Of a DNA stretch of 64,000 bases, positions 40,715 to 59,946 are shown piece by piece. The notes beneath the pieces were generated by a model. That model was not told the origin of the DNA. It saw only the letters and a program-made list of their open reading frames with translations, and did not search any database. The number at the start of each line of letters is the position of its first letter. Position 1 is the first letter of the stretch. Made by a program: the position numbers and the translations under genes. This DNA is from Dehalococcoidia bacterium (lineage in GTDB: Bacteria > Chloroflexota > Dehalococcoidia > GIF9 > UBA5629): contig JADHXB010000001.1 of the NCBI GenBank assembly GCA_016783155.1, positions 1,228-65,227 of the forward strand, read 5' to 3'.

Positions 40715-40717
40715 CTT

Positions 40718-43312
40718 TTAAGCTCCTTCCTTCACTATTTCAACCAGGCATGAATTTGGTGCCATACCACAGGCATTCTTAGACATGAAGCGGTGATTGG
40801 TCAGGAGATTAATGCAGCCGCCTTTGTCTGGAGATTCACCCGGTTCGCCAATTGGTTGGTACTCAGCAGAGGATTCATATGAGTGTACCACTCCGGGTGG
40901 GACACGCCCGGTAACCTGAGCAGCACATAATACGGCACCCCGTTCGTTAAAGACCTTTACTATATCTCGGTTCTTGATGCCCCTCTTTTTGGCATCCTCT
41001 TTGTTGATTCGAATCACCCAGTAGTAATGACCATCTTTTGCCTTGATCCGGTGTTCTGGTATCTCGTTCATCCAGCTTTCTTTCCCATCATACATCGTAT
41101 GGAAGCTAAACCGTGGATGTGGTGAGATCAGCTGCAGCGGATATTTTTCATAAAGTTCCTTGGTGTGATGACCTTCCCACGAAGGGATGTACTTGGGAAC
41201 AAGTGGTCTCTCCGGGTCATCAGGATCAAAGCGCTTGAGGCTCTCAGATTCAAACTCGATTTTGCCGGTCTGGGTAGTCAGGTTCCCTTCCCGGTCGGGC
41301 AGGCCTTCTACAGCTCCACCAACAGGCCCCCAGTCCGGTGTATCCCTGTGCCTGTTCTCGGCAAACCATCTGAGTGCCGGCGTTGGTTTATAATCGTCAG
41401 GCAGGGGAACCACATAGTAGCCCTTCTTCTCGAAATCTTCCCAGGAGATGTGTTTCGGTAGATCGGTTACCTCGTACATCCTCTTGACCCGGTCCAATTC
41501 AGTCATGCCTCCCTCGGTGAACTTGTCATAGAAGCCAAGCCGGTCAGCAATCATGGCAAATATATCATAGTCTGACTTTGACTCTCCGAGAGGTTCAATA
41601 CACTTCTTCTCAAAGATGATAATACGGTGGTTTGTCTGATACGAGTTATGAGGTATGTAGCCCGAGCAGTGAGCCCACTCACCAATATCCCACCGTTCAA
41701 AGTTGGTACAGGCGGGAAGTATCAGGTCAGCAAATTGTGCTTCGCCCTCCATCCAGATAGACTGGTTAACCACAAATTCCAGGTTGGGGCTCTGGTACAT
41801 CTTGACCCAACGGTTGGTGTTGTTCATGGTGCCGATATAGGCACCACCATACCGCCAGAACATCTTGCACTCGGAAAATCCATCTTCAGGGTACTTGTAC
41901 TTCTTGAACTGGAATTCAGTAGAGGCACCACAGAACCCCTTGCCTCGCCATTCTTGAGGTGGTTCGCTAATGCACTCGGGAACTAGAATCCGCGGCATAT
42001 GCTGCCCGCCAGGATTGTTAATTGCCGAAGTCACCGGAGCCATAGTCACTCCCCTCTGAATCATCTGGAATCCAGCGGCGCTGTTTAGCGCGTCACCGGA
42101 TATCCCGCCTTCAGCATATCCTGGAAAGAGAAAATTGGCATTAAAGGGAGCACCGCCAGTGGTTGACCAGATATTAATGCCTGGTTTGCCCAGACCCTGC
42201 ATGGCCTGAAGCAGTACCATCATTCTGGCCCATTCGGTTCCGTAGGCGGTTCGGCAGGCTCCTCCCCAGCCACCAAGCCCTCCGGCAGCCAGCATGGTCT
42301 TCTTCTTCGCCCATTCTCTGGCCAGGGCTTTAATCTCCCGAGCTGGTATCCCGGTCTCCTTCTCCGCCCATTCGGGTGTCTTGGGAAAACCACCGTCATC
42401 GCCGAGAATGTAGTCACGCCATTTTTCAAAGCCGTGGGTCCGATTGGCAATGTATTCCTTATCATACAGGTTCTCAGTCATCCATACATAGGCGATAGCT
42501 GCAGCTAAAGCCGTATCGGTACCTGGTCGGGGCGCAAACCATTTATCGCAGAAATTAGTCGCCGTGAAATTATAGTATGGGTCAATAAAGACCATTTTTA
42601 CGCCCAGGTCTTTCAGCCAGAAGCGTCTTGGGGTTGACTCCTGCCCGGAATATATTCCGCTGGTGGATTCGGGGTCACTGGACCAGAACACAATCATTTC
42701 CGTGTTCTTTAAGGCATCTTCCAAAAGGTCATATTGTTCTGGAACCCCCAACCTCCAGGCAAAACCCCAAGTGTGCATAGCACCCCAGTGCCAGCCTTCC
42801 CAGCTGTCCGGGTTGTGGTCACAATAGGTATAGCCGAGGATGCCCATAAATCTGAAATAGGTGCTGTGTCGATAACCTATATTGCCCCAGGTATGGTGTG
42901 AGGAAGCCGTGCTGGCGATAACCCCCGGTCCGTATTTTGTGTGGATACGCTGTATTTCCGAACAAAGAATGTCCAGGGTTTCCTTCCAGCTGATTCGCTC
43001 ATAGCGCGATTTGCCTCTATTCTGCGGATTCCTGTTTCCCTTGGGGTCAAAGTCCACTCTCTTCAGGGGATAGAGGAGCCGGTTAGGTGCATATATTTTT
43101 GCCCTCTCAGTCAATGTATATGGTGAAAGCAACGCTTTTCTGGGAGGAGAGAACTTCTTTCCTCGTGCCTCGATCACCCATGATTTGGCATCATCATCAT
43201 CGAGTTCCAGAGGTTCTATTCGGGTTATTCTGCCATCCTTCACGTAAACATAAACGGGGCCGCCGACAGTACAGTTAGTAAAAACTTGTTCACCATTTGT
43301 CGAATAAGCCAT
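40718..43312 (-). CDS. molybdopterin (DMSO-reductase-family) catalytic alpha subunit, pyrogallol-phloroglucinol transhydroxylase (AthL)-like
   Basis: 864 aa. No twin-arginine signal and no N-terminal Cys4 cluster motif, as in cytoplasmic transhydroxylase alpha. Molybdopterin domains I-IV pattern. Paired with the BthL-like beta. Confidence 0.85.
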   Translation of the reverse strand: MAYSTNGEQVFTNCTVGGPVYVYVKDGRITRIEPLELDDDDAKSWVIEARGKKFSPPRKALLSPYTLTERAKIYAPNRLLYPLKRVDFDPKGNRNPQNRGKSRYERISWKETLDILCSEIQRIHTKYGPGVIASTASSHHTWGNIGYRHSTYFRFMGILGYTYCDHNPDSWEGWHWGAMHTWGFAWRLGVPEQYDLLEDALKNTEMIVFWSSDPESTSGIYSGQESTPRRFWLKDLGVKMVFIDPYYNFTATNFCDKWFAPRPGTDTALAAAIAYVWMTENLYDKEYIANRTHGFEKWRDYILGDDGGFPKTPEWAEKETGIPAREIKALAREWAKKKTMLAAGGLGGWGGACRTAYGTEWARMMVLLQAMQGLGKPGINIWSTTGGAPFNANFLFPGYAEGGISGDALNSAAGFQMIQRGVTMAPVTSAINNPGGQHMPRILVPECISEPPQEWRGKGFCGASTEFQFKKYKYPEDGFSECKMFWRYGGAYIGTMNNTNRWVKMYQSPNLEFVVNQSIWMEGEAQFADLILPACTNFERWDIGEWAHCSGYIPHNSYQTNHRIIIFEKKCIEPLGESKSDYDIFAMIADRLGFYDKFTEGGMTELDRVKRMYEVTDLPKHISWEDFEKKGYYVVPLPDDYKPTPALRWFAENRHRDTPDWGPVGGAVEGLPDREGNLTTQTGKIEFESESLKRFDPDDPERPLVPKYIPSWEGHHTKELYEKYPLQLISPHPRFSFHTMYDGKESWMNEIPEHRIKAKDGHYYWVIRINKEDAKKRGIKNRDIVKVFNERGAVLCAAQVTGRVPPGVVHSYESSAEYQPIGEPGESPDKGGCINLLTNHRFMSKNACGMAPNSCLVEIVKEGA

Positions 43313-44017: not shown

Positions 44018-44374
44018 CTATTGCCGCGGAGGTGCCATCCACACGACGAACCTGAGAGTTTCTGTTCCTATTGGCTTAATGCCGTGTTTGGCTCCTGGGG
44101 GAATATAAAGGCAATCACCAGGCTCTACCTTAATTTCCTCACCCTCAACCTTGGCCAGTCCTCTTCCAGAGAGAATGAAATAGGCATGCTCAGAAATTGG
44201 GTGGACATCCTCTTCGGCTTCCCCACCTGGGCGAATTTCGGTGAGGAAGAACTCGATGCTCTTGCACCCAACCGTAGCTTTATTCGCCAAAACAAAGGCA
44301 TCCGTGTTAGTGTGTTTTGGTGGACAAACTGACTGGACATCCCTCATCCGCCTTAAAATTGCTTTGTCTGCCAT
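44018..44374 (-). CDS. cupin-domain protein
   Basis: 118 aa. HxH...E...H-type cupin_2 pattern (HPISEHAYFILSGRG...PPGAKHG). Confidence 0.7.
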   Translation of the reverse strand: MADKAILRRMRDVQSVCPPKHTNTDAFVLANKATVGCKSIEFFLTEIRPGGEAEEDVHPISEHAYFILSGRGLAKVEGEEIKVEPGDCLYIPPGAKHGIKPIGTETLRFVVWMAPPRQ

Positions 44375-44424
44375 ATCAGTAATCTCCTCCTTTTTTATTT
44401 AGAATCTTATTTAACTGCAAATTT

Positions 44425-45309: not shown

Positions 45310-45522
45310 ATTCCCTCCTGTGTTACATATTGGCTACTTCTTTCTTCAAATACCAATTTCGGCTTTAGAATGACCCTATCTTAGAATTTCATCCCCCCTT
45401 TCTTTATATTCATTAGATGATTTCTGGAATTCGCTCACACCATTGTACTTTATCGAAGCATATTCCCCCAAAGAAATATACATCTTTTGGGTATTAATCA
45501 GGCTGGGTTTGGAATCTCTACT

Positions 45523-46752
45523 TCAATAAGCCATGGATCCAGGAAGCCCGCAAGAGATCAGTTCGTCACAAGGGAACTTAAACAGTCTTTCGCATCCGTC
45601 TTTGGTGACCATAACCTCCTCTTCAATTCTGGCTGCTCCATTTCCATCCGCGGATTGGCAATAAGTTTCGAGAGCGAATGTCATTCCTTCTTTAATAGGA
45701 AACGGTTTATCTAACGAAAAGAGCCTGGATATAACTGGTTTCTCCCAAATGCTCATTCCAACACCATGGCCAAATTGAAGCAAAAATGCCTCGCGTTCAT
45801 CTTTAAATCCGAATTCTTCCGCTTTGGGCCAGCATTTTGCTACGTCCGCCGTGGTTGCTCCGGGCTTGACTGCGTCCATAGATTTTTTCAACCATGTCCA
45901 GGCTTTTTCATAAGCCTCAAGTTGTGCTTTGGAGGGCTTGCCACAGATGAAGGTGCGATAATAACACGTTCGATAGCCATTAAAAGAGTGCATAATATCC
46001 AGGAAAACCATGTCTCCCGGCCGGATAATCCTATCGCCAAAAGTGTGGGGGTGAGGTTGAGCTCGAGGTCCAGAAACACTGTTCACACACTCTACCAGAT
46101 CAGACCCGAGGGTGAACAGCAAATGGTTGGCGATTGCAACCAGGTCATTTTCCCGTATCCCTGGTCTAATATTCTTAACAATTTCTGCGTAGGCTGCGTC
46201 CACCATGGCGCAGGCAAGCTTTAAGAGCTCAATTTCGTCTTTGGTCTTGATGATCCTGGCATCCAACATTGCCTGCTGGCCATCTACTACCTTTACATTC
46301 TCTTTTTCCAGCGACCTGAGAAACGGAACATCTACAATGTCAACACCCAGCGGGTCGTTGGCTACTCCGTAATCTGAAAGGACTTTTTTTACTGACTTAG
46401 CTAAGGCTTCGACATTTCCCACCTCAGGTGGTATGGCACCTCTCATCGACCCAACCGCAGGGAAAACCCGGTCAGCTATCCATGGTGCGCTCTTTCGCTT
46501 TGCCGGGGCAGCCGGGTCATAGAGAAGAGGGTCTGAATCCTTGGGGAGAATCACGTATCGCTGCATTTTATTCCTGGCCCATTCTCCCACATGGGTTCCA
46601 GTAATATAGCGGATATTGTCAAAATCGTAGCATAGGATGGCTCCTAGGCCGTGTGCCTTAAGCTGCTCTTTCGCTTTTGCCAAACGTTCCCGGCGCAACC
46701 TGTCATAGTTAATTCTCTCTTCAAAGTCAACCGCCATAGTGCCAACGGTCAT
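45523..46752 (-). CDS. M24-family metallohydrolase (creatinase/Xaa-Pro aminopeptidase-like; creatinase_N + pita-bread fold)
   Basis: 409 aa. Creatinase-N-like first ~150 aa, then M24 metal-ligand pattern (D..D..H..E..E contexts: FLDIMHSFNGY, FGHGVGMSIWE, ALETY). Confidence 0.75.
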   Translation of the reverse strand: MTVGTMAVDFEERINYDRLRRERLAKAKEQLKAHGLGAILCYDFDNIRYITGTHVGEWARNKMQRYVILPKDSDPLLYDPAAPAKRKSAPWIADRVFPAVGSMRGAIPPEVGNVEALAKSVKKVLSDYGVANDPLGVDIVDVPFLRSLEKENVKVVDGQQAMLDARIIKTKDEIELLKLACAMVDAAYAEIVKNIRPGIRENDLVAIANHLLFTLGSDLVECVNSVSGPRAQPHPHTFGDRIIRPGDMVFLDIMHSFNGYRTCYYRTFICGKPSKAQLEAYEKAWTWLKKSMDAVKPGATTADVAKCWPKAEEFGFKDEREAFLLQFGHGVGMSIWEKPVISRLFSLDKPFPIKEGMTFALETYCQSADGNGAARIEEEVMVTKDGCERLFKFPCDELISCGLPGSMAY

Positions 46753-47127: not shown

Positions 47128-48108
47128 ATGAATATGCAGAAAATAGGTAGTGAAAAGCTTAAGGAAATTTTTATCAAAATGTTAAGGATCCGTGCCTTTG
47201 AAGAAAGGGCAATTGCGGAATATCGCAAAGGCATCTTACCTGGCTTTATACATTCTTCAATTGGACAAGAGGCAATCCCGTCTTCTGTCTGCGCATTCCT
47301 GAGGGATGATGACTACATCTTGACTACGCATAGAGGCCACGGCGATATCATCGCTAAGGGAGCCAAATTCGATAAGATGATGGCAGAGCTTTATGCCAAG
47401 GAGACAGGGTATAACAAAGGTAGAGGAGGCTCTATGCATATCGTGGCAGCAGACCTCAACATGCTTGGAGCCACCGCAATTGTTGGTGCCGGTGTTCCTA
47501 TAGCCAGCGGCGTTGCACTGGGTTGCAAGATGCAAAACCTCGATAGAGTAACTGTATGCTTCACGGGCGATGCTGCAACTTGTACCGGTGCCTTCCACGA
47601 GGGCGTTGGTCTGGCAGCAATATGGAACCTGCCAGTAATCTTTGTCGTCGAGAACAACCAGTACGGAATGAGCACTCCGGTAAAATATTATTGTAAGCTT
47701 GAGCAACTGTCTGATAGAGCCAAAGCCTACGGGATTCCCGGGGTAACTGTTGACGGAAATGATGCTGAGGCTATTGCCAATGTTGCCAGTGAGGCAATAG
47801 ATAGAGCCAGAAAAGACGGAGGCCCTACCCTTATTGATGCTATCACTTATAGATATTATGGACACCATATGGGCGACCCCGGTACTAGCTATAGGACTAA
47901 AGAGGAAATTGAGGAGTGGAAACGACACGATCCTATCGAAAGATTTCAAGGTCGCCTTTTAAAGGCAAAGGTAATCACTAAATCGGAAATTCAGGAGATC
48001 CAGGCTAGCATAAATAGAGAGCTTGATGAGGCAGTCAAGTTCGCCATGGAGAGCCCGGAACCTAGGATAGAAGATGCCCTTAATAACATCTACTGTCCAT
48101 CAGCATAA
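47128..48108 (+). CDS. 2-oxoacid dehydrogenase E1 alpha subunit (TPP-dependent; pyruvate/acetoin/branched-chain type)
   Basis: 326 aa. TPP-binding GDG...N motif region (GDAATCTGAFHEG...NNQYGMS). Confidence 0.88.
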   Translation: MNMQKIGSEKLKEIFIKMLRIRAFEERAIAEYRKGILPGFIHSSIGQEAIPSSVCAFLRDDDYILTTHRGHGDIIAKGAKFDKMMAELYAKETGYNKGRGGSMHIVAADLNMLGATAIVGAGVPIASGVALGCKMQNLDRVTVCFTGDAATCTGAFHEGVGLAAIWNLPVIFVVENNQYGMSTPVKYYCKLEQLSDRAKAYGIPGVTVDGNDAEAIANVASEAIDRARKDGGPTLIDAITYRYYGHHMGDPGTSYRTKEEIEEWKRHDPIERFQGRLLKAKVITKSEIQEIQASINRELDEAVKFAMESPEPRIEDALNNIYCPSA

Positions 48109-48128
48109 AAGTCAAGGGGGGGGTATAG

Positions 48129-49133
48129 ATGCGAGATTTAACCTACAGAGAAGCAGTACGTGAAGCTCTTGGGGAGGAACTGAGACGCGACAAGTCAGTT
48201 TTCCTTTTGGGTGAAGATATTGCGGAATATAGTGGGGCATACAAGGTAACCCAGGGGCTACTAGAGGAATTCGGTCGAGAGAGGATAAGGAACACAAACT
48301 TAGCTGAATCGGCGATAGCGGGTGCTGCACTGGGAGCCGCCCTGGTAGGCACACGACCAGTGGCTGAAATAATGTACATTGACTTCTCTCTCCTCGCCCT
48401 GGACCAAATCTTCAACCAGATAGCCAAGTTCCGCTACATGACCGGTGGTATGGTAAAGGTACCACTGGTGATTCGGACTCAGGGTGGTGGGGGTAAAGCT
48501 GCAGGACTTCACCATTCCCAATCCCTAGAAGCACTCTATACACATATTCCAGGACTTATAGTGGTTATGCCATCCACTCCTTATGATGCTAAAGGACTGC
48601 TGAAATCAAGCATAAGAGACGATAATCCAGTTATATTTATTGAACACAAGGGGCTTTATAATGAATCAGGTCCGGTTCCTGAGGAAGAGTACATGATACC
48701 ATTGGGGAAAGCAGAAGTTAAACGCCAGGGTAAAGATATCACCGCTGTCGCCTATTCCAAAAGCCTTCTTCTAACCTTGAAAGCTGCCGAAACCCTAGAA
48801 AAATATGGCATTTCTTTGGAGGTAATCGACCCACGGACTCTGAAACCATTAGACCAGGACACTATACTGAATTCAGTAGAGAAGACAAGCAGATTAATGA
48901 TAGTTCACGAAGCTTGTAAAACGGGAGGATTTGGTGCAGAAATAGCCGCTATCGTTGCTGAAAAGGGTATTGACTATTTGGATGCACCGATCAAACGAGT
49001 GGCAGCCTTAGACTCACCTATCCCCTTCAATCCTAGGTTGGAAGATTATGTCCTGCCCAACGAGAATGACATCATCAAGGGAGCATTTGAATTGACGGGT
49101 AAAGAAATACCAGCCGAGCTAAAACTTGGCTAA
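48129..49133 (+). CDS. 2-oxoacid dehydrogenase E1 beta subunit (transketolase-like)
   Basis: 334 aa. Transketolase pyrimidine-binding and C-terminal domains. Sits between E1 alpha and E2. Confidence 0.9.
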   Translation: MRDLTYREAVREALGEELRRDKSVFLLGEDIAEYSGAYKVTQGLLEEFGRERIRNTNLAESAIAGAALGAALVGTRPVAEIMYIDFSLLALDQIFNQIAKFRYMTGGMVKVPLVIRTQGGGGKAAGLHHSQSLEALYTHIPGLIVVMPSTPYDAKGLLKSSIRDDNPVIFIEHKGLYNESGPVPEEEYMIPLGKAEVKRQGKDITAVAYSKSLLLTLKAAETLEKYGISLEVIDPRTLKPLDQDTILNSVEKTSRLMIVHEACKTGGFGAEIAAIVAEKGIDYLDAPIKRVAALDSPIPFNPRLEDYVLPNENDIIKGAFELTGKEIPAELKLG

Positions 49134-49189
49134 ACTAATGCATTAATCTCAAAGGCAAGAACTGATAGAAAACTAGTGGAGATGGAGAG

Positions 49190-50434
49190 ATGGCTACTGC
49201 AATAATACTACCAAAACTCGATGAGGCAATGCGCACGGGGAAAATCGTGAAGTGGCTGAAAAAGGAGGGGGATCTGGTCAAAAAGGGTGAGGGTGTTGTC
49301 CAAATAGAAACTGAGAAGGTAACTTTCGAGATTGAAGCAGAGGGATCAGGCATCTTAGGCAAGATAATGGCCAAAGAGGGAGAAGAGCTGCCTGTAGGAA
49401 CAATCATCGCCTATATTATTCAGCCAGGAGAAAAAGTGCCTGAGGCGCCGGTGTTGGTAGCCACAGCTAGGGAAGCAGCAAGAACTCAAAAGCCTGTAAC
49501 TGTGCCAAAGGAAGAAGCGCGAGCTAAAGTGTTTGAGGCACCGACAGAAGGCCGAGCCATAAAGGCTTCTCCACTGGCAAAGAGAATAGCCAGGGAACAT
49601 AACATCGATATAACCTCTATCAGAGGAACAGGTCCAAGTGGTAGAATAGTCAGGGAAGATGTCCTGCGGGTTATGGAGGAAAGCAAGATAGCAGTGGCTC
49701 GACCTACCCGGGAAGAGGTGGAATTGGCTGATGAGCAAGTTGCATCGCTGTCATCCATGCGCAAGGTTATCGCCAGGCGTATGACGGAGAGCTTCCAATC
49801 ACCGCATTTCTATCTCACGGTAGAAGTTGAAACCCAGGAATTGATGAAGACCAATAAACAGTTGGTGCCGCTTATAGAGAACAAAATCGGAATACGTTCG
49901 ACCATCACTGATTTGCTTATTAAGATGGTAGCGAAAGCATTGGAGGATAACCCCTCCATGAATTGTGCCTACTTTGATGGGTCTGTCAAGTTCTTCAGAC
50001 GAATAGATATAGGATTGGTTACCTCTGTTGAAGGAGGGCTTGTTGTCCCTGTTATTCGCCAGGCTAATAGGAAATCATTAACCGAGATTGCCCGAGCCAG
50101 GGCTGAGCTAGTTCAGAAAGCCAGAGAAGGCAAACTCAGCATGGCAGAAATGAAGGGCAGTACTTTCACTCTTTCCAATCTGGGGATGTATGGGATAGAC
50201 CAGTTCAGTGCTATCCTCCAACCCCCCGAGGCAGCCATTTTGGCTGTTGGTCGCATTGCGGACAAGGCAGTGGTAAGAGAGGGGCAAATAGTAATCCGAC
50301 CCATGATGACAATGACCTTGTCTATTGACCACCGTGTTCTGGATGGCACTATCGGAGCACAATTTCTAAAGAGCCTGAAAGATTACATCGAAAACCCTGC
50401 ACTTATGTTTTATAGCGTCTTAGTTAGTCCCTAA
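49190..50434 (+). CDS. dihydrolipoamide acyltransferase E2 (lipoyl domain + E3-binding + catalytic domain)
   Basis: 414 aa. N-terminal lipoyl-lysine context (VQIETEKVTFEIEA) and C-terminal DHRxxDG catalytic motif (SIDHRVLDG). Confidence 0.88.
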   Translation: MATAIILPKLDEAMRTGKIVKWLKKEGDLVKKGEGVVQIETEKVTFEIEAEGSGILGKIMAKEGEELPVGTIIAYIIQPGEKVPEAPVLVATAREAARTQKPVTVPKEEARAKVFEAPTEGRAIKASPLAKRIAREHNIDITSIRGTGPSGRIVREDVLRVMEESKIAVARPTREEVELADEQVASLSSMRKVIARRMTESFQSPHFYLTVEVETQELMKTNKQLVPLIENKIGIRSTITDLLIKMVAKALEDNPSMNCAYFDGSVKFFRRIDIGLVTSVEGGLVVPVIRQANRKSLTEIARARAELVQKAREGKLSMAEMKGSTFTLSNLGMYGIDQFSAILQPPEAAILAVGRIADKAVVREGQIVIRPMMTMTLSIDHRVLDGTIGAQFLKSLKDYIENPALMFYSVLVSP

Positions 50435-50452
50435 ACTTAAGAGGTAAAAATA

Positions 50453-51832
50453 ATGGCCAATAGCATCACAATAGTTGGTGGTGGACCCGGTGGCTATGTA
50501 GCCGCCATCAGAGCAGCCCAACTGGGCACACAAGTTACCTTAATTGAGAAGGACGCTCTCGGGGGAACTTGTCTCAACCGCGGTTGCATCCCCACCAAAG
50601 CATTACTGCAATCAGCTGACCTTCTCGAGAAAATCAAGCATTCCGAAACCTTTGGTATCTCAGCGGAGAAGATATCTCTGGATTTCTCAGCGGTAATCAA
50701 GCGGAAGGAAGCTGTAGTAAAGCGGTTGGTAGATGGCGTTGCCTATCTGATGAGAAAGAACAAGATTAAGGTCATTAAAGGCACCGGTGCTCTGATTGAT
50801 TCCAAGACAGTGGGAATTTTAGGAGGAAACGATAGAATAAGTTCTGACAGCATCATTATTGCCACGGGCTCGAAGCCCTCTACAGTTCCCATTAAGGGCA
50901 TCGATGAGCCCGGTGTCATAAGCAGTGATGAAGCTTTGGCCATGGGCCAGCTTCCCAAAAGCATGGCCATCATCGGTGGAGGGGTGATTGGGTTGGAATT
51001 CGCCCAGATCATACACAAGATGGGAGGCAAGGTAACTATTATAGAGATGATGCCTCAAATACTGCCCGCCGAGGATGCAGAAATTGCCCGCATGCTCGAG
51101 GATATATTGAAGAAAGAAGGTATTGAAGTCTTCACTGATGCCATGGTCACCAACATCGGGAGCGACAAACAAGGTAAGAAAGTTTCTTTCACCACCAAAG
51201 ATGGTAGTAAACAAGAAATAGCAACAGATAAGGTACTGATCGCTGTAGGAAGACAACCCTGTACCGATGACCTTGGAGTAAATAAACTGGGTCTTGCCAT
51301 GGATAAAAGTAGGCTAGTTGTCAATGAATACCTGAGGACTAATGTTCCGAATGTCTATGCCATCGGTGACGTAACAGGAGGGCTCATGCTGGCTCATAAG
51401 GCCATGGAAGAGGGTAAATGTGCAGTGGAGAATGCACTAGGTGCTGAGAGCAAGATGGATTATCGCACTGTCCCCCGGTGTGTTTATACTTCCCCTGAAG
51501 TAGCAGGGGTTGGGCTAACTGAAACTTTAGCCAGAGAGGAGTATGGGAATATTAAGGTCGGGCGATTCCCCTTTACCGCTAGCGGTAGGGCAGTAATACA
51601 AAATGAGACAGCGGGTATAGTGAAAATTATTGCCGATGCCAAATATGGGGAAATTCTGGGCATACACATAATCGGCCCTCAAGCCACTGAGTTAATCGCT
51701 GAGGCTGTTCTCGGAATGAAATTGGAAGCCACTTTTGAAGACATTGCCTCTACCATTCATGCGCACCCCACCCTATCGGAAGCAGTGATGGAAGCTGCTC
51801 TAAATGTTGAAGGAAAAACCATCCATTCCTAA
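50453..51832 (+). CDS. lpdA: dihydrolipoamide dehydrogenase E3
   Basis: 459 aa. GGGPGGY FAD motif, redox-active disulfide GGTCLNRGCIPTK, and C-terminal HAHPTLSE interface motif. Confidence 0.9.
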   Translation: MANSITIVGGGPGGYVAAIRAAQLGTQVTLIEKDALGGTCLNRGCIPTKALLQSADLLEKIKHSETFGISAEKISLDFSAVIKRKEAVVKRLVDGVAYLMRKNKIKVIKGTGALIDSKTVGILGGNDRISSDSIIIATGSKPSTVPIKGIDEPGVISSDEALAMGQLPKSMAIIGGGVIGLEFAQIIHKMGGKVTIIEMMPQILPAEDAEIARMLEDILKKEGIEVFTDAMVTNIGSDKQGKKVSFTTKDGSKQEIATDKVLIAVGRQPCTDDLGVNKLGLAMDKSRLVVNEYLRTNVPNVYAIGDVTGGLMLAHKAMEEGKCAVENALGAESKMDYRTVPRCVYTSPEVAGVGLTETLAREEYGNIKVGRFPFTASGRAVIQNETAGIVKIIADAKYGEILGIHIIGPQATELIAEAVLGMKLEATFEDIASTIHAHPTLSEAVMEAALNVEGKTIHS

Positions 51833-52538
51833 TCCACAGAGAGGATTCACCTCTAAGACAAGCCTGTGTCAGGTATATGATCTCGGCACAGTTGATTATG
51901 AGAAAGCCCTGCAACTGCAAAATAAGCTGGTGTCAGCCCGCATTGCCGCTGAAATTCCAGATACAATCCTGTTTCTTCAGCACCCTTCAGTACTGACGAT
52001 TGGAGTGTCTGGAAATGAGGAAGGCGTCATTGCCTCGAGAGATCTGCTGGCTCAAGAAAGAATAGCTATCTTCCATATCGACCGCGGAGGAGGCATTACC
52101 TACCATGGCCCAGGGCAGTTAGTAGGATATCCGATTATCGATCTCAGGACAAAAGGAATAGGGCCAACGCAATATGTGCGTCACCTGGAGGAGGTAATCA
52201 TACGAGCCTTGGCTACCTTCTCTATTACTGCCAATCGCGACCCTGAATATCCTGGTGTCTGGGTAGGACAGGACGAGATTTGCGCCCTGGGAATTCGGGT
52301 GATTCACTGGGTCACCATGCACGGATTCGCTCTGAATGTGAACACCGACCTGAAGTACTTCACCTACATTACTCCTTGCGGTATTACCGATAGGCAGGCA
52401 ACCTCGATGTCGCGGTTGCTGGCACACGACATTGCTTTAGAGAATGTAGTTCCGTGTATAATTGAGCAGTGGGCACAGGTTTTTAATATGAAGATTAGGC
52501 AAGAATCTGCCGAGGAGCTATTACGCTATGTCCAGTAA
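51804..52538 (+). CDS. lipB: lipoyl(octanoyl) transferase
   Basis: 244 aa. HIDRGGGITYHGPGQLVGYPI matches the LipB active-site region. Overlaps the E3 3' end, so the true start may be later. Confidence 0.8.
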   Translation: MLKEKPSIPNPQRGFTSKTSLCQVYDLGTVDYEKALQLQNKLVSARIAAEIPDTILFLQHPSVLTIGVSGNEEGVIASRDLLAQERIAIFHIDRGGGITYHGPGQLVGYPIIDLRTKGIGPTQYVRHLEEVIIRALATFSITANRDPEYPGVWVGQDEICALGIRVIHWVTMHGFALNVNTDLKYFTYITPCGITDRQATSMSRLLAHDIALENVVPCIIEQWAQVFNMKIRQESAEELLRYVQ

Positions 52539-53388
52539 ACATCCAGGGTGGATGATAAAGAAGACTCCATCCACATCCATCATTGCTGAGATGAGCGTGC
52601 TAATCGATGGGCTATCGCTTCATACCGTCTGTCAGAGTGCTCTATGCCCCAACCTGGGGGAGTGTTTTTCGCATCAAACTGCTACCTTCCTGATCATGGG
52701 AAATATTTGCACTCGTAATTGCAGTTTTTGTGCTATCAACAAAGGAAAAGGTTTTGCCCTTGATCCAGATGAGCCCTGGAACGTCGCCCGGGCCGTCAGT
52801 AAACTGAAGTTGCACCATGTCGTCGTTACTTCAGTAACCAGGGACGACCTTCCCGATGGAGGAGCCACACACTTCACCAGAACGATAAACGCCATCAGGC
52901 AAACCAGTCCCCAGGCTACCATCGAGGTTCTCATTCCTGATTTTAAGGGCTCCCTCGAGGCGCTCAAAACTGTTGTGGATAGCTCCCCAGAAGTTGTCAA
53001 TCATAATGTGGAAACTGTGCCACGCCTATACTCCGAGGTACGCCCCAAAGCTGATTACCATCGCTCCTTGAATCTATTACGGACAGTGAAATCCCTGAAC
53101 AGAAACATATTAACCAAATCTGGGCTGATGGTGGGGTTGGGAGAGGAACATGACGAGATAGTAAATGTAATGGAAGAGCTCCGCACAGTACAGTGTGATT
53201 TCCTGACTATCGGACAATACCTGGCACCATCACCGAAGCACTACCCAGTGGCAAGGTATGTTACTCCCCAGGAGTTCGAAGAGTATAAGAGCTTAGGGGA
53301 GAGGATGGGCTTTAGCTATGTAGCGTCAGGCCCCTTCGTGCGTAGTTCTTTCAGGGCAGCGGAAATGGTGGCATCTAAGCCGCATTAA
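52528..53388 (+). CDS. lipA: lipoyl synthase (radical SAM)
   Basis: 286 aa. CPNLGEC auxiliary cluster motif and CTRNCSFCA radical-SAM CxxxCxxC motif. Confidence 0.9.
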   Translation: MSSKHPGWMIKKTPSTSIIAEMSVLIDGLSLHTVCQSALCPNLGECFSHQTATFLIMGNICTRNCSFCAINKGKGFALDPDEPWNVARAVSKLKLHHVVVTSVTRDDLPDGGATHFTRTINAIRQTSPQATIEVLIPDFKGSLEALKTVVDSSPEVVNHNVETVPRLYSEVRPKADYHRSLNLLRTVKSLNRNILTKSGLMVGLGEEHDEIVNVMEELRTVQCDFLTIGQYLAPSPKHYPVARYVTPQEFEEYKSLGERMGFSYVASGPFVRSSFRAAEMVASKPH

Positions 53389-53510: not shown

Positions 53511-55274
53511 ATGAAAGGGTTTTTTAATAAAGTACTACATGTGGATTTAACTGGTCGAACCTACTGGGTGGAAGAGCTAAAAGACGAGGCATTATCTTCC
53601 TGGCTAGGAGGGCGAGGGTTGGGCTGCTATCTTCTCTGGAAGACCCTGAAAACGGGCATCGATCCCCTATCTCCCGAGAATTCACTCATTTTTGCCACAG
53701 GTCCAGCTGCAGCAACAAAAATGCCAGGATCCAGCCGCTACGGCGTCTATAGTAAATCACCCCTGACCAATTTTTTCGCTGATTCCTATGCCGGAGGTCA
53801 TCTCGCTCCGCAGATGAAAAAAACTGGTTACGATGCTATTATCGTTCATGGGGCCTCCTCGTCGCCAGTGTTCCTGGAAATCTCATCCGATGGAGCTAGA
53901 TTTTGGGATGCTTCTGACCTATGGGGAAATAGCACCTACGAGACAGAGGAGCAATGTCTGAGCAAAGTTAACATCCCTGGAGCCCAGGCTTTGGTAATCG
54001 GCCCTGCTGGTGAGAATCTGGTAAGATTTGCTTGTATTGTGAACAATCGCTGGCGTAATGCCGGCCGAACAGGGATGGGAGCAATCATGGGCTCCAAGAA
54101 GCTCAAGGCCATGGTCTTTCACGGAGAAAAGGAATGTGAAATAGCCGATCCAGGATTGCTGGATAGTCTGGTACATGACCTTACAGAGCGAGGAAAAAAC
54201 GACCCTACAGTTCGAAGGTACCGGGAATTGGGGACACCAATGCTGGTGGCAACAACTAATCTGGCTGGCGCTTTTCCTGCTGAGTATTGGTCGAAGGGAA
54301 CACTTCCGGGATGGGAAAAGATTTCTGCAGAAACTATGCAAAGAGATTTCGAGGTAAAAGCAAGGGCTTGTACACGTTGCTTTCTTGCTTGCGGGAAACT
54401 AACCACAGTAACCCAGGGAAGACACAGGGGGCTGACTCTTGAAGGGCCAGAGTACGAGACCATTTATAGTTTCGGAGGCTTATGCAAGATCCTGGATCTG
54501 GCAGAAATCATATACCTGAATGACATCTGTGATAGGCTCGGAATAGATACCATAACTGCCGGTAATATAGTGGCTTTCTGCATGGAGTTATCCAAGAGAG
54601 GAAAACTTTCTGAAAAGGTTGATTATGGTAATCCCGACCATGCTGCGGAGTTGCTACACAAAATTTGCCAGAGGGAAGGATTGGGTGATACGCTGGCAGA
54701 AGGGATAAATAAAGCGAGTCAAGTTCTGGGTGCCGAAGACCTGGCTATCCATGTTAAAGGATTAGAGCCGGCTGGATATGACCCCCGCGTGCTTAAAGGT
54801 ATGGCACTCGGTTATGGTATATCACCACGCGGAGCCTGTCACCTGCCAGCAACATATTATATCTTTGAACTACGCGGGGTAGTAAATCCATCAGAAATAC
54901 AAGGAAAAGCAGAGTCGTACATTGGTTATGAAGACAGGCTTACAATTATGGATACCATGATTCTCTGTCGGTTCTTTAGGGACATGATCGGTTGGCCAGA
55001 GTTAATTAAGCTTATCAAAGCTACGACTGGTTTGGAATTCGATGAGTCAGGGCTAAGAGAGCTAGCTAATAATATAACTACCCTGAGGCATTTAATAAAC
55101 ATCCGGGAAGGATGGAACAAAGAAAATGATATGCTGCCAGCACGCTTATTAGATGAGCCCATCAATGGGCATCGGGTTACCAAAGACGAGCTTAACTACA
55201 TGGTGAATGAATACTATCAACTAAGGGGTTGGGATGAGGATGGTAAACCACTTAAAGAGCTTAGCATTGAGTAA
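53511..55274 (+). CDS. aldehyde:ferredoxin oxidoreductase family protein #4 (shorter, divergent paralog)
   Basis: 587 aa. MKGFFNKVLHVDLTGRTYWVEE N-terminus and AOR-like domain order, but clearly more divergent than AOR #1-3. Confidence 0.82.
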   Translation: MKGFFNKVLHVDLTGRTYWVEELKDEALSSWLGGRGLGCYLLWKTLKTGIDPLSPENSLIFATGPAAATKMPGSSRYGVYSKSPLTNFFADSYAGGHLAPQMKKTGYDAIIVHGASSSPVFLEISSDGARFWDASDLWGNSTYETEEQCLSKVNIPGAQALVIGPAGENLVRFACIVNNRWRNAGRTGMGAIMGSKKLKAMVFHGEKECEIADPGLLDSLVHDLTERGKNDPTVRRYRELGTPMLVATTNLAGAFPAEYWSKGTLPGWEKISAETMQRDFEVKARACTRCFLACGKLTTVTQGRHRGLTLEGPEYETIYSFGGLCKILDLAEIIYLNDICDRLGIDTITAGNIVAFCMELSKRGKLSEKVDYGNPDHAAELLHKICQREGLGDTLAEGINKASQVLGAEDLAIHVKGLEPAGYDPRVLKGMALGYGISPRGACHLPATYYIFELRGVVNPSEIQGKAESYIGYEDRLTIMDTMILCRFFRDMIGWPELIKLIKATTGLEFDESGLRELANNITTLRHLINIREGWNKENDMLPARLLDEPINGHRVTKDELNYMVNEYYQLRGWDEDGKPLKELSIE

Positions 55275-55293: not shown

Positions 55294-55908
55294 TCACTCC
55301 TCGTGTGTAGTTCCGGGATTATGCGGAATTTGAGATACCACGTAAGGGGCTTCGCCCTGGCAGCCAAGGCATATTTCCCCATCAGCAAGCGGATAAGCTT
55401 CTTTACAGCTGGGACAAATGGCAAATCCAGTTCTATGCAGCTTTTTCAGGAAACGGGGTGCAATCTTAACTTGCTGGATACTGCAAATATTTGCTCCGGC
55501 TTCCTTAATCTGTTTCATCAAGAGTTGAGAGTCCTGTTCCTTCTTGGGCTTCAGGTTGAAAAACCAGCTTTTAATCTCGGGCCATGATTCTACCTTAGCC
55601 GAATCCAGAAAAACTCGTATCCCTTTACCATTGTATTTATCGTAAAGAGTCATGGCATAACGGCCCATATTGATGACTCTAAGCCAGCCGTTCCCGACAG
55701 TGCAGGGCGTGAGAAGCTGTATGGCATCTGGTAGACAGTGGGCAGTTTCGCTGATAGCATCAAATAGTCCTTCTTCAGGAAGGTGCTGGTACGCTAGATC
55801 TATCATAAACCCGCCAATGATCACGCCCGGAGCGACAAAGCCATGGAAGCATTGGATCCGCTCAATATATTCTTCAAAGGTATAGGAACAAATATTCATG
55901 GACACCAC
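55294..55908 (-). CDS. FmdE-family protein with C-terminal zinc ribbon
   Basis: 204 aa. FHGFVAPGVIIGG...ETAHCLPDAIQLLTPCTVGNG matches the FmdE core. C-terminal CPSCK...CLGC ribbon. Lies between AOR#4 and the second Mo-enzyme operon. Confidence 0.75.
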   Translation of the reverse strand: MVSMNICSYTFEEYIERIQCFHGFVAPGVIIGGFMIDLAYQHLPEEGLFDAISETAHCLPDAIQLLTPCTVGNGWLRVINMGRYAMTLYDKYNGKGIRVFLDSAKVESWPEIKSWFFNLKPKKEQDSQLLMKQIKEAGANICSIQQVKIAPRFLKKLHRTGFAICPSCKEAYPLADGEICLGCQGEAPYVVSQIPHNPGTTHEE

Positions 55909-55929: not shown

Positions 55930-56772
55930 TTAGAGGTAGATCGTCCCAGCATAAAGGCTTTTCTTTAGGTTAACCTCGATGGTTTTTGTGTCATAACCCG
56001 CATAAGCTATCTGGAACGTGTATTTGCCGCTATTTTCTTCAAGGTTGTCAAACTTAAAATCGCCGTAGTTATCGGTCACACACTGGCTAACTTTCTTATT
56101 GGCGGCATTGAAAATGGTTACTGTAGCGCCTTCGGCACATTCATCTTTGCCATCTACCCGGACCGCAACGCTGCCACCGATGAAACATCGGGTAAACCGA
56201 TGCAGATTCTTGTAATAGACACGAGGGCTGGTTTTATGTTCCGGCTGATAGACTTCAAGCTTCTCGGCCTTGATGATTTCCTGCATCTCAGCGTCCTCGA
56301 CACAATGAACGCTTAATGCCCCTGTAGGGCAGGACTCTACACAGCGGGTTTTCATCCAGCCGTCATCGAGCAAATGGGCACAAAAAGCGCATTTTTGAGG
56401 TACTCCGAGCTCCTCGTTCCACCAAATAGCACCATAGGGGCATGCATTGATAACGTTTTTCTGCCCCTTTGCCTTGACTGGGTCAATAATAATGATGCCA
56501 TCAGGTCTCTTGTATATTGCTCCATCCTTAGCTGCTTTGATACACGGTGCATTGGCACAGTGCATGCACGGTACAGGCAGGTAAGCGACATCGATGAAAG
56601 GATACTGTCCTCGTTCCTTTCCGTGGATGTTTATCCATTTTTGTCCACGATTGGGCTGTGGTGCTGAATATCCCGGCCAATCATTGTCCACGTGCTCGTC
56701 CTTGCAAGACAAAAAACAGTTATTACAGTTTCCACATTTTTCTATGTCAATGATCAAATACCATTTCTTCAT
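55930..56772 (-). CDS. molybdoenzyme Fe-S beta subunit, BthL-like, paralog 2
   Basis: Same Cys-cluster layout and C-terminal beta-domain as the 39884-40714 product. ORF track starts at 56817, but alignment to paralog 1 and an AGGA SD favour the MKKWYLIIDIEKC start at 56772, just after the alpha stop. Confidence 0.82.
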   Translation of the reverse strand: MKKWYLIIDIEKCGNCNNCFLSCKDEHVDNDWPGYSAPQPNRGQKWINIHGKERGQYPFIDVAYLPVPCMHCANAPCIKAAKDGAIYKRPDGIIIIDPVKAKGQKNVINACPYGAIWWNEELGVPQKCAFCAHLLDDGWMKTRCVESCPTGALSVHCVEDAEMQEIIKAEKLEVYQPEHKTSPRVYYKNLHRFTRCFIGGSVAVRVDGKDECAEGATVTIFNAANKKVSQCVTDNYGDFKFDNLEENSGKYTFQIAYAGYDTKTIEVNLKKSLYAGTIYL

Positions 56773-56783
56773 TATAGATTTTC

Positions 56784-59771
56784 CTACCCCGTCCATTTCT
56801 CGATTTGCACAAGGCAAGAATTTGCGGCAAAGCTATGCGATTTTTTGATCATTGGCCGACTTGGGGTCAATATATTCATACATCCGCCACGATCTGGTGA
56901 AAGCCCTGGCTCACCTATCGGATCATATATTGCCGCGGATTCATATGAGTGAACAGTCCCGGGGGGAACCCTTTCGGTCACCTGGGCCGCACAGATAACG
57001 GCACCCCGGTCATTGAACACCTTGACCAGGGCGCTCTCTTTGATTCCACGCGCCTCAGCATCCTTCGAGTTGATCCGCACAATCCAGTAGTAATAACCAT
57101 CAATCGGTACTCTGTGGTCCTTTATATCGTTGATCCAGCTATCTTTACCATCGCCCATAGTATGAAAGCTGTACCTTGGATGAGGGGTTATCAATTGCAA
57201 CGGGTACTTTTGAAACAGTTCAGTGGTATGATGACCCTCCCAAGAGGGAATGTATTTGGTCATAACCGGTCTCTCCGGGTCGTCAGGATCGAACCGTTTC
57301 AGGCTGGAACATACAAATTCCAGCTTGCCCGATTGTGTCTGAAGCCCTCTAAATACTTGTTCGGTGTAGTCAGCCGGTAATGGTGCTATCTCCGGTGTGT
57401 CTTTTAGTCTGTCCTCCGCAAACCACCTAAAGGAGACAGGATGTCTTAACTCCTCCTTGGGTGCGGGGACGACATAGTAGCCCTTCTTCAGGAACTTCTT
57501 CCACGACATGACCTTTGGAACATCTGTGGCATCAAATAATCGCTTGCACCAGTCAAATTCAGTTACACCCTCGGAAAATATAGCAGCAAATCCCAGCCTC
57601 TTCGCCAGCTCAAGAAAAATCTGGAAGTCTGATTTTGATTCGCCTAAAGGTTCGATGCACTTGTGCTGCATGAGGATAACACGATGGTTGCACTGATTGA
57701 AGCTATGCTGGACATATCCGCCGCAGTTAGCAAATTCGCTGATATCCCATCGCTCAAAGCTAGTGCAAGCAGGTAGTATAATATCGGCAAATTTGGCTTC
57801 ACCTTCAAACCAGATGGACTGGTTGACTACAAACTCCAAATTGTCGGACCGGTATGCCCTCACATAGCGGTTTGTCTCAGGCATGGTGCCGATATGAGAG
57901 CCTCCGTATTTATAGTACATCTTGATTGGCGGATAGCCAGGTGCCGGATAGTCAAACCTAAGGAACTGGCCTTCAATTGTCTTCGAGTCAGTGGGATAGC
58001 CGTAGGTGTGGCCATCCAGGATTGCCTCTGGAATATTCAGCCGAGGCACCCGCTGATACACCGTGTTAACAGTGGGGAGCTGTGGGAACCGCGAGAAAAG
58101 ACTAACGCCAAGCGCAGTAGCAGCTAGGTCTCCTGACATGCCTCCCTCGGCATAACCCGGGAAATAAAAGCTGGTGTCGAGCGGTGTTCCTTGCTGCATA
58201 CCGCCCATGTTTACTCCGGGTTTGCCCAAGCCCTGCATAGCCATAAGGCAGACCATAGAACGAGCCCATTCATTACCAGTGGCACAGCGGCAGGCGCTGC
58301 CGAAACCGGTTATTCCTCCTGCTGCCAGGTAAGTCCTTTTGGTTCCCCATTCTCTAGCCAGAGCCCTGACATCTTTGGCCGGAATTCCAGCCTCATTTTC
58401 TTGCCATTCAGGAGTCTTGGGGGTTCCGTCTTCTTTGCCCAATATATAGTCTTTCCATTCGTCAAACCCAATCGTATGCCTGGCAACATACTCTTTGTCG
58501 TAAAGACCCTCGGTAATCCAGACATAGGCAATTGCCAAGGCTAGAGAATTACCTGTTGCCGGCCTGGGAGCAAACCACTTGCCGCCGAATAGAGCTGCTG
58601 TATGGTTATAGAATGGATCTATATGTACCATCTTGATACCCAGTTCTTTCAACCATTGACGGCGGACGGTGCCTTCAAAGGCACCGTAGACACCGCTGGT
58701 AGCTTCCGGATCGCTCGACCAGAATACCACCATTTCACATTCTTTAAGGCAATCTTCAACCGTGCCATAGCTCTCTGGGGCACCAAGCCGCATACTGTGC
58801 CCCCAGTGATGCATGGCTCCCCAGTACCATCCCTCCCAGCTGTCCGGATTATGGACGACAGGGGTCCAGCCAACGTTATTAAAAAATCTCAGTCTGATGC
58901 CTAGCCAGTAGCCCAAGTTTCCCCACAAGTGGTGAGACCCACTGCCATTCAGAATTGCCCCTGGGCCATAATTCCTTTTCACACGCTTTATCTCATTAGC
59001 GACAACATCGAGCGCCTCTTGCCAACTGATGCGCTTGTAACCTGAGATTCCCCGGTTCTGGCAATTTCTTTCACCATTCGGGTCAAAATCGACTCGTTTC
59101 ATAGGGTATAAAATTCTGTCCGGTGAATAGATCATAGATTTAAATACCAAGGTATGAGGCGAGATGGTTGTTTTGCGTGGAGGAGTAAAAGCCCTGCCTC
59201 TTGCTTTAATGGTCCAGGGTTTAGCATCACTGTTGTCAAACTCAATGGGTGTGATCCGTATAATCCTACCATCTTTCACATAGACAAAGACCGGACCGCC
59301 ATTGGTATTGCTGGTATATCTGATGACATCTTTACCAACCTTCGTTCCATATTTGGTGCCAGCGTTCAGCATTAGACTCAGTGTCTCCATCCACCAGTAA
59401 CTTAACTCATCGGTACCGTCCAACCATAATTGAAAGCTTTTCATAGCATTAACCATGGCCAGCTGGTCGCGGGGCGGCACAAGGATATCAAGAGCTATTC
59501 GGGCGCTTCCGAAAATCATGGTAACATCAGGGCTGGCATAAATACCGCTCTTGGAAATAACCTTACCATCACGGATAGCAAAATACCTGCCACGTGAATT
59601 GTCCTTGAGCTTTATTTGCACAGTCAGATTTTTCTCCTTAAGCCGACTCTTGAAGAACGGAAACCTCATTGCCGTCAGCCCAAACAGCATCCTCACGCCA
59701 AGAAGTACTATTGAAAAGAGCAGGTTTGCCAGTGGCAATGATTTTGATAATGTATTCACTATTGATTTCAT
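56784..59771 (-). CDS. molybdopterin catalytic alpha subunit, transhydroxylase (AthL)-like paralog 2, with ~130-aa N-terminal extension
   Basis: 995 aa. Residues ~135-995 align with the 864-aa paralog (..[23 protein letters not shown]..). ATG at 59771 has an AGAGGG SD. The extension carries a hydrophobic helix and an SCP2-like stretch. No RR Tat motif. Confidence 0.85.
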
Positions 59772-59946
59772 GATTTGCCCTCTGTAGATTGTTTTGGAGA
59801 CTGCTAGTTCGTGCTTCGGTTACATTTTGCCCACAGGTAAGGCCTTTGTCAAGAAAGGTCTGGGGCTGAGCAAGGCTGTTTACATGCCAAGATTCGCTTG
59901 CTCCACATGTTGCGTCAAATAGAGTGTTGTCGAATAGGCAATTCTT

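Follow-up and report, generated by a model that had tools for sequence, protein, structure and literature searches.

We analyzed a stretch of 64,000 nucleotides (the window) from contig JADHXB010000001.1 of a Dehalococcoidia bacterium. Its minus strand encodes the 995-residue alpha subunit of a molybdenum enzyme with a bis(pyranopterin guanine dinucleotide) cofactor (Mo-bisPGD), which belongs to the family of the transhydroxylase AthL and the resorcinol hydroxylase RhL. We find that residues 1–137 of this subunit very probably form a soluble domain with the SCP2 fold and are a genuine part of the protein. This domain characterizes the RhL-type branch of the family, whose substrate pocket is remodelled (Arg153 of AthL being replaced by Trp, Tyr, or Phe); the AthL-type branch is without it.

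The N-terminal extension and its start codon

The alpha subunit is 58% identical to an 864-residue paralog encoded in the same window, and in the BLASTP alignment residues 152–992 pair with residues 11–861 of the paralog, leaving about 141 N-terminal residues unmatched. With the structurally solved AthL of Pelobacter acidigallici (4v4c), the large subunit of the pyrogallol–phloroglucinol transhydroxylase, residues 148–995 of the query pair with residues 3–869 of the chain (1127 bits). Because both alignments begin only at residues 152 and 148, respectively, we conclude from them that the extension is real and comprises about 141–147 residues. The original prediction had described an extension of about 130 residues (59370–59771, corresponding to residues 1–134) that is absent from the paralog. 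Its presence and its absence from the paralog are confirmed, AthL lacks it as well, and only the length has to be increased slightly; the peptides cited at the time are found in the translation.

A scan of species-representative genomes yielded 17 loci, which stem from metagenome-assembled genomes (MAGs) of Syntrophobacterales, Syntrophales, Syntrophorhabdales, Dehalococcoidales, and "Chloroflexia". In 11 of these loci, belonging to Desulfobacterota and Chloroflexota, the open reading frame (ORF) of the alpha subunit is intact and 996–1015 residues long. The 11 intact orthologs derive from independent MAGs. Their alignment with the window protein opens at residue 1, and all of them start with the same initial MK.. 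and are preceded by a purine-rich motif resembling a Shine–Dalgarno sequence. The start at 59771, which had been set against a possible start at an internal methionine, is shared by all intact orthologs, and an internal start was not seen among these orthologs. In the window the start codon is preceded by a Shine–Dalgarno-like motif and by a match to the sigma-70 promoter consensus (Table 1), and an Rfam scan of the 5′ region gave no match.

The extension diverges more quickly than the remainder of the protein. Among the orthologs it is 54–77% identical versus 82–87% for the catalytic part, and its rate of nonsynonymous substitution (dN) is 0.26 versus 0.10, that is, it evolves about 2.7 times faster. 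It is under purifying selection, with a ratio of nonsynonymous to synonymous substitution (dN/dS) of 0.07–0.18 in the 7 of 11 orthologs where dS is defined, dS being saturated in most pairs.

Fold of the N-terminal domain

The sequence of the extension cannot by itself establish the fold; it is the predicted structure that settles it as SCP2. Pfam gave no match in the first ~150 residues of the window protein, even at E ≤ 1, everything being below every gathering threshold, and no NCBIfam model matches the extension. Among 14 close homologs, SCP2 (PF02036) is weakly matched by two (best E 0.039) and Alkyl_sulf_C (PF14864) by four (best E 0.045). When a profile of these 14 homologs was compared with the sequences of the PDB, the top three matches were mosquito SCP2-like 2 (E ~0.025), in register over ~80 residues of the core stretch; with a deeper profile the match was weaker (SCP2-like 2 at E 0.45).

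AlphaFold2 was applied to the isolated domain. An alignment of the 14 close homologs gave a mean predicted local distance difference test score (pLDDT) of 49.7 and this model was discarded, whereas the alignment of 58 diverse homologs yielded the only usable model with a pLDDT of 91.6 and a predicted TM-score (pTM) of 0.83. The model comprises helices at residues 2–8, 12–36, and 38–44, strands at 49–55, 61–67, 70–75, and 83–87, helices at 90–97 and 103–111, a further strand at 115–119 and a final helix at 121–136. This topology corresponds to the description of the SCP2 fold, namely a five-stranded sheet onto which the N-terminal helices pack and which a C-terminal helix closes. In a Foldseek search against the PDB the best 41 matches are all of the SCP2 fold (E 2.4e-6 to 2.9e-3, probability 1.00), among them UbiJ-SCP2, the C-terminal domains of alkylsulfatases, the archaeal protein AF1534, and SCP2 proteins of insects, human, rabbit, and yeast. 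Invariant or nearly invariant residues in the core of the domain are D57, R62, G69, F87, A109, K111, and G119. The loose resemblance to SCP2 that had been noticed by eye behind a hydrophobic stretch, and for which a structure prediction of the N-terminal region had been suggested, is therefore borne out by the model and its structural matches.

The hydrophobic helix itself had been placed in front of this region as a separate element. In the model it is instead helix α1 of the same fold, predicted with a pLDDT of 93–95 and lying within the stretch that is aligned to UbiJ. The UbiJ alignment has 118 columns on a chain of 121 residues, and since the strands together with the C-terminal helices account for no more than ~88 residues, it must take in the N-terminal helices. 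Over 58 members the domain has a median net charge of +7 and an isoelectric point of about 10, and in the window protein the net charge is +11. This charge is concentrated in helix α1 (mean net charge +3.7), which in a typical family member is amphipathic and rich in Lys and Arg, for example FTATLAGLEVLLRATARRYPAF. As α1 has this composition across the family and only short charge-free runs, a transmembrane anchor is unlikely. A twin-arginine motif (S/T-R-R-x-F-L-K) is found neither in residues 1–36 nor in the N-termini of the orthologs; the first 36 residues do not even contain an Arg pair, in agreement with the earlier statement that the helix is not a twin-arginine translocation (Tat) signal.

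Catalytic part and the two branches of the family

In the alpha subunit Pfam identifies the AhtL-like first domain (PF21423, residues 159–213), the molybdopterin oxidoreductase domain (PF00384, residues 219–725) and the dinucleotide-binding domain (PF01568, residues 858–986). This set, together with Fer4_11 and CarboxypepD_reg in the beta subunit, is the one that defines the AthL/RhL family, a Ser-ligated family of the DMSO reductase superfamily. In AthL numbering H144, D174, S175, and Y404 are retained in the window protein (in SHH..., NPDSWEGW, and PGYAEGG). Ser175 is reportedly the molybdenum ligand, accompanied by Asp174, His144, and Tyr404 (roles after Messerschmidt et al. 2004). R153 is replaced by W and H154 by L; GYRHSTYF of AthL reads GYWLGIRL and EGWHWG reads EGWYWG. 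By these motifs and by its N-terminal domain the window protein is not an AthL-type pyrogallol transhydroxylase proper. The 864-residue paralog has kept both AthL motifs.

All homologs which bear the extension have a pocket of the type GY[W/Y/F][L/I]S...EGW[Y/F]WG and retain H144, D174, S175, and Y404. We compared 121 sequences, namely 119 RhL-like matches and the references RhL and AthL. The full domain is present in 85 of them and a partial one in 24, the latter resulting from gene calls at internal methionines, and in 94 of the 119 RhL-like matches the domain and the aromatic motif occur together. Three sequences are clearly of the AthL type, as recognized by the R motif and/or by a start of the form M..V.(K/R)LTN..TGGPV, and all three are without the domain. 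Over the first ~400 residues (396 available) the window protein shows 64.6% identity with RhL and 59.4% with AthL, and for the 864-residue paralog the order is reversed (57.6% to RhL, 63.8% to AthL). Judged by motif and identity the window alpha subunit belongs to the RhL-type clade. Because an AthL-type pair coexists with it in the same window, the organism carries both branches of the family.

An exhaustive HMMER profile search of 1.84 billion cluster representatives returned 543 matches at E ≤ 1e-3, 278 of them at E ≤ 1e-10, and in the listed matches of sufficient length the domain precedes the AhtL-like catalytic domain nearly always. The fusion, which had been regarded as unusual, is therefore no oddity of this genome; it marks a large RhL-type clade. 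Exceptions to the architecture are P0110 (424 residues) and P0124 (259 residues), in which the same N-terminal domain precedes not a molybdenum enzyme but an NAD_binding_2/NAD_binding_11 enzyme of the 3-hydroxyisobutyrate dehydrogenase type. Since it also fronts these dehydrogenases, the domain is a mobile module.

A search for homologous proteins gave almost only short fragments or frameshifted pieces, with neither full-length proteins nor alternative architectures. Many of the short database entries are due to frameshifts, contig ends, or gene calls at an internal methionine, and they do not contradict the long form. One candidate for a stand-alone domain protein, P0297, was rejected, as it turned out to be a frameshifted gene. 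In many long contigs named 'contig_N', which are perhaps long-read assemblies, frameshifts at differing positions break up the alpha gene. These split genes look like indel errors of the assembly rather than biology and account for the many short database proteins.

Start of the deposited RhL sequence

RhL of Azoarcus anaerobius is the biochemically and genetically defined resorcinol hydroxylase. Its sequence (A0N0U2), which we took from supplementary file 4 of PMC7327174, begins with MVIGRDELSVWFMQLMN... and has the second type of pocket motif (GY[Y/W]LS.., EGWYWG). Residues 2–36 match positions 105–139 of the domain profile (E 4e-11), so that the annotated start lies just upstream of the C-terminal helix of the domain (compare 59364–59460 on the minus strand of the window). 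Relatives with 69–77% identity hold the whole domain. For this reason the deposited start is probably an internal methionine and the entry N-terminally truncated, as far as can be judged from the sequence comparison.

Gene neighborhoods

The gene of the beta subunit follows that of the alpha subunit in the window and adjoins it also in the orthologous loci. A mechanically derived beta ORF (55930–56817, minus strand) would start with TTG and overlap the alpha stop codon by 34 nucleotides; the ATG at 56772 is the start called in an identical contig and is favored by the orthologs as well. Farther downstream lies a gene for an FmdE-like protein, and in five orthologous loci (L003, L005, L007, L014, and L017) such a gene is likewise found downstream of beta. 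No gene for a membrane anchor or a cytochrome b subunit was seen in the operons examined, and none is conserved nearby.

The extension-bearing alpha–beta genes recurrently adjoin ABC transporters of the Peripla_BP_6 type and genes of short-chain dehydrogenases/reductases (SDR). In several genomes the neighbors of the alpha orthologs are genes for a cyclase (PF04199), BKACE, a cupin, DUF362, a 3-hydroxyacyl-CoA dehydrogenase (3HCDH), and SDR proteins. A gene set of the cyclase/BKACE/3HCDH type degrades phloroglucinol in Clostridium scatologenes (PMC10470551), and this analogy suggests that the product of the alpha orthologs may feed a phloroglucinol pathway. With ABC transporters and phloroglucinol-pathway-type genes alongside, the neighborhoods point to small and polar phenolic substrates and not to lipids. 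The idea of a module for the delivery of hydrophobic substrates, put forward in the original prediction, fits poorly with this picture.

Taken as a whole, the 64-kb window forms a gene island for the anaerobic metabolism of phenolic compounds (Table 1). Besides the AthL-type transhydroxylase, it encodes four aldehyde:ferredoxin oxidoreductases, CoA ligases, proteins resembling phenylphosphate synthase, a set of the corrinoid O-demethylase type, and E1, E2, and E3 subunits of the 2-oxoacid dehydrogenase type together with LipB and LipA. One of the aldehyde:ferredoxin oxidoreductase genes is the immediate neighbor of the FmdE-like gene in the alpha operon. The PPDK_N and PEP-utilizers proteins are arranged similarly to PpsB and PpsA of phenylphosphate synthase. 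The corrinoid methyltransferase set appears to serve the O-demethylation of methoxylated aromatics. The E1/E2/E3 set recalls BqdLMS of the resorcinol pathway of A. anaerobium, which resembles pyruvate dehydrogenase and cleaves hydroxybenzoquinone; an ordinary complex for acetoin or a 2-oxoacid is just as likely. Both stand-alone SCP2 genes of the earlier annotation (given there as 22040–22983) are present, with their extent taken here from the ORF list, and are situated between genes for an AMP-dependent ligase and an Fe-alcohol dehydrogenase.

Table 1. Features of the window and of orthologous loci (positions following an L number refer to that locus; all others refer to the window; aa, residues)
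Feature	Position	Strand	Basis
Alpha subunit, 995 aa	56784..59771	minus	ORF list
SCP2-fold domain, aa 1–137	59361..59771	minus	AlphaFold2, Foldseek against PDB, weak sequence matches
Helix α1, aa 12–36 (the hydrophobic helix)	59664..59738	minus	DSSP, pLDDT 93–95
Beta-sheet core, aa 49–119	59415..59627	minus	AlphaFold2 secondary structure, conservation
C-terminal helix, aa 121–136, near-invariant W126	59364..59411	minus	AlphaFold2, conservation
Linker to catalytic domain 1, aa 138–147	59331..59360	minus	pLDDT falls to 63–83; AthL alignment opens at aa 148
Catalytic Mo-bisPGD part, RhL-type, aa 148–995 and stop codon	56784..59330	minus	Pfam, AthL alignment
Shine–Dalgarno-like GAGGG, 7–11 nt upstream of ATG 59771	59778..59782	minus	Sequence
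Sigma-70-like promoter match TTGACA-17-CAAAAT, ~50 nt upstream of the start codon	59824..59852	minus	Consensus match only
Beta subunit, 280 aa from ATG: 4Fe-4S ferredoxin-type domain and C-terminal CarboxypepD_reg-like beta-sandwich	55930..56772	minus	Pfam, gene call in L002
FmdE-like protein, treble-clef zinc finger (PF02663, PF23475)	55294..55899	minus	Pfam, gene call
864-aa AthL-type paralog without extension, GYRHSTYF and EGWHWG kept	40718..43312	minus	BLASTP, motifs
AthL-type alpha–beta pair with nearby genes	39884-46752	minus	
Cupin, near AthL-type pair	44018-44374	minus	
NAD_binding_2 dehydrogenase, near AthL-type pair	44425-45309	minus	
M24/creatinase-like protein, near AthL-type pair	45523-46752	minus	
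E1 alpha, E1 beta, E2, E3 (2-oxoacid-dehydrogenase-type), then LipB, LipA	47128-53388	plus	
Four paralogous aldehyde:ferredoxin oxidoreductases (AFOR_N/AFOR_C)	7277-9118, 24594-26450, 33788-35626, 53511-55274	plus	
PPDK_N protein and PEP-utilizers mobile-domain protein flanking three tandem SDR genes	930-1970 (−), 2561-5020 (+), 5116-6831 (+)		
Corrinoid methyltransferase set: Pterin_bind, RACo reductive activator, Met_synt_B12-like, URO-D-like methyltransferase, B12-binding protein	9156-14686	minus	
Two stand-alone SCP2 genes (PF02036, E ~1e-11)	21995-22408, 22567-22983	plus	ORF list, Pfam
Frameshift-split alpha genes	L001 10001-12957; L005 8001-11005; L014 8001-10995; L020 10001-12810; L021 10001-13003; L022 5001-6373		
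Phloroglucinol-type neighbors	L022 1-4700; L015 5-184, 2197-3105; L016 6-464; L011 2118-3026; L019 2037-2945		

Possible function of the domain

SCP2 folds bind lipophilic ligands, and because the substrates are likely polar, the membrane or an isoprenoid quinone is the more plausible lipophilic partner. We lean, tentatively, toward the domain being a membrane-docking or quinone-binding adaptor of the RhL-type enzyme, since it is strongly basic, has an amphipathic helix α1, and no membrane-anchor subunit is encoded nearby. AthL-type transhydroxylation is redox-neutral and takes place in enzymes without the domain. Hydroxylation of the RhL type, by which resorcinol is converted with water to hydroxyhydroquinone, is in contrast oxidative and needs an external electron acceptor (PMC10084136), and this difference between the branches is a further reason for our preference. 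As an adaptor the domain would keep the cytoplasmic alpha–beta enzyme docked to the inner side of the membrane or would bind an isoprenoid quinone in the way UbiJ and UbiT do. Electrons from the water-dependent hydroxylation could then pass from molybdenum over the iron–sulfur clusters of the beta subunit to the quinone pool. A more specific version, which we regard as rather doubtful, is that a built-in module for both quinone binding and membrane docking replaces the anchor subunit of the NarI/DmsC type found with other enzymes of the DMSO reductase family and connects a two-subunit cytoplasmic hydroxylase to the quinone pool.

Several points weigh against such an adaptor. In the Foldseek search UbiJ is only marginally better than the alkylsulfatase and classical SCP2 matches, so that quinones are not singled out. 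There are basic SCP2 proteins that do not serve as membrane adaptors, and the NAD-dependent dehydrogenases P0110 and P0124, which need no quinone, carry the same domain. The subclade of the window protein is located next to phloroglucinol-pathway genes and could therefore catalyze a redox-neutral transhydroxylation, for which no acceptor is required. Finally, one review lists RhL simply as cytoplasmic (PMC10100899).

The main rival of the membrane or quinone adaptor is a role in handling the substrate or co-substrate, which we consider unlikely. Here the domain would lie over the substrate funnel, bind the phenolic substrate, a substituted phenol of greater hydrophobicity, or a reactive co-substrate, for instance tetrahydroxybenzene, and pass the ligand on to the molybdenum site, in analogy to the SCP2-like C-terminal domain of alkylsulfatases, which helps to form the substrate channel. 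Alkylsulfatase domains (2yhe, 4axh, and 2cfu) are indeed among the best structural matches, and the weak Alkyl_sulf_C matches in 4 of the 14 close members point the same way. In addition the domain accompanies a more hydrophobic and aromatic pocket, in which besides the exchange of R153 for W, Y, or F also H154 is changed to L or I. The polar residues D57, R62, and K111 would be unusual in a lipid tunnel and could bind phenolic hydroxyls, and the occurrence of the domain on unrelated dehydrogenases is what would be expected of a generic ligand-presenting module. However, resorcinol, on which the only characterized member of the clade acts, is a small water-soluble phenol, the transporters dependent on substrate-binding proteins and the phloroglucinol-pathway genes argue for polar substrates, and AthL manages similar phenols and a co-substrate without the domain.

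Quite unlikely in our view is a purely structural role without a small-molecule ligand, that is, in oligomerization, at the alpha/beta interface, or in the docking of a maturation factor such as the FmdE-like protein. It would be in keeping with the FmdE-like gene behind alpha–beta in the window and in five orthologous loci, with the faster evolution of the extension, and with the general observation that in alpha subunits of the DMSO reductase family the N-terminus is near the interface with beta. On the other hand the SCP2 fold is characteristically ligand-binding, the domain is also found on NAD-dependent dehydrogenases without a beta subunit, and FmdE is absent from many loci.

The earlier suggestion that the hydrophobic helix anchors the enzyme in the membrane is not sustained by the family. 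In the window protein the 19-residue Kyte–Doolittle maximum of helix α1 is 2.11, and a few close relatives reach 2.3, values that by themselves would speak for a helix (residues 12–36) which spans the membrane and tethers the enzyme as a transmembrane or signal anchor. However, the longest charge-free run in the window protein is 16 residues, as R27 interrupts it, and among 55 family members only 11 reach a Kyte–Doolittle value of 1.6, with a median of 1.25 and a median charge-free run of 10. A conserved, uninterrupted hydrophobic helix of at least ~19 residues, as in single-pass membrane proteins, is thus not a feature of these 55 members. Many members begin only 2–3 residues before the helix, which moreover is part of a compact predicted domain (pTM 0.83) and aligns to N-terminal helices of soluble SCP2 proteins. 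A Tat motif is missing, although a folded Mo-bisPGD enzyme could not use the Sec pathway. Taken together, these points make an anchor of this kind highly improbable. We see next to no chance that the extension is an annotation artefact with 130–145 untranslated codons upstream of a true internal start: 24 of the 121 database gene calls, including RhL A0N0U2, do begin at Met or Val codons inside the domain, but these short calls begin at scattered positions, as expected of frameshifts and miscalls, whereas the 11 intact orthologs from two phyla share the first Met and the Shine–Dalgarno-like motif, dN/dS is low where it is defined, and there are 543 homologous cluster representatives and a confidently predicted known fold.

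Implications

AthL/RhL-type enzymes in MAGs from sediment, peat, and aquifers are routinely labelled "pyrogallol transhydroxylase" and used to infer anaerobic polyphenol turnover. The N-terminal domain and the pocket motif divide the family in two, so that true transhydroxylases can easily be distinguished from likely oxidative hydroxylases. N-terminal truncation affects many gene calls, probably that of the reference RhL among them, which matters for heterologous expression and for phylogenies, and a Pfam or InterPro model of the domain is warranted to close this gap in the databases. Should the coupling to membrane or quinone hold true, it would account for the way in which a cytoplasmic hydroxylase of two subunits gets rid of its electrons and would constitute a new wiring of a Mo-bisPGD enzyme to the respiratory chain. 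A quinone adaptor would also explain why the domain is present in the oxidative RhL branch and not in the redox-neutral AthL branch.

Comparison with known systems

The resorcinol-hydroxylating activity of Azoarcus anaerobius was reportedly found in the membrane fraction (Philipp & Schink 1998), which would be in keeping with an adaptor at the membrane. The closest characterized relative, RhL (RehL) of Azoarcus/Aromatoleum anaerobium, acts on resorcinol (PMC10100899; PMC10084136), and its deposited sequence is without the first ~104 positions of the domain. RhL is accompanied by btd/bqd genes of the hydroxyhydroquinone pathway (PMC10084136), whereas the subclade of the window protein is found beside phloroglucinol-pathway-type genes, so that substrate or product may differ. 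AthL (4v4c) aligns with the catalytic part from end to end and has the same beta architecture; it differs in lacking the N-terminal domain and in having R153 and H154 where the window protein has W and L.

Stand-alone SCP2 proteins (PF02036), including the pair encoded in the window, are of the same fold class as the extension. Between the two window proteins and the extension BLASTP found nothing, and hhalign gave a probability of 0.6%, in what is a weak test with a template of two sequences. That SCP2 domains can be fused to enzymes is familiar from alkylsulfatases and from SCPx/MFE-2. Full-text literature searches brought up no publication in which SCP2 is connected in this sense with transhydroxylases or with molybdopterin enzymes, and the SCP2 fold on a Mo-bisPGD enzyme, as well as its value as a clade marker, appears to be undescribed. 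In the alkylsulfatases SdsA1 (2cfu), Pisa1 (2yhe/4axh), and YjcS (4pdx) the SCP2 fold, matched with E values of 5.6e-6 to 5e-5, is also fused to a catalytic domain. There it is located at the C-terminus of a hydrolase with the metallo-beta-lactamase fold that acts on amphiphilic alkyl sulfates, whereas in the window protein it is N-terminal on a Mo-bisPGD enzyme for what are likely small polar phenols.

The best structural match of all is the SCP2 domain of Escherichia coli UbiJ (6h6n/6h6o/6h6p), with 6h6o at E 2.4e-6 and a TM-score of 0.64 normalized to the target, at a sequence identity of only 14–18%. UbiJ is a separate protein of a metabolon, whereas the domain described here is fused to the N-terminus of a molybdenum enzyme. 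According to PMC9499169, SCP2 modules of the UbiJ/UbiT type hold an isoprenoid quinone as lipophilic ligand and in this way serve cytoplasmic enzymes, hydroxylases among them.

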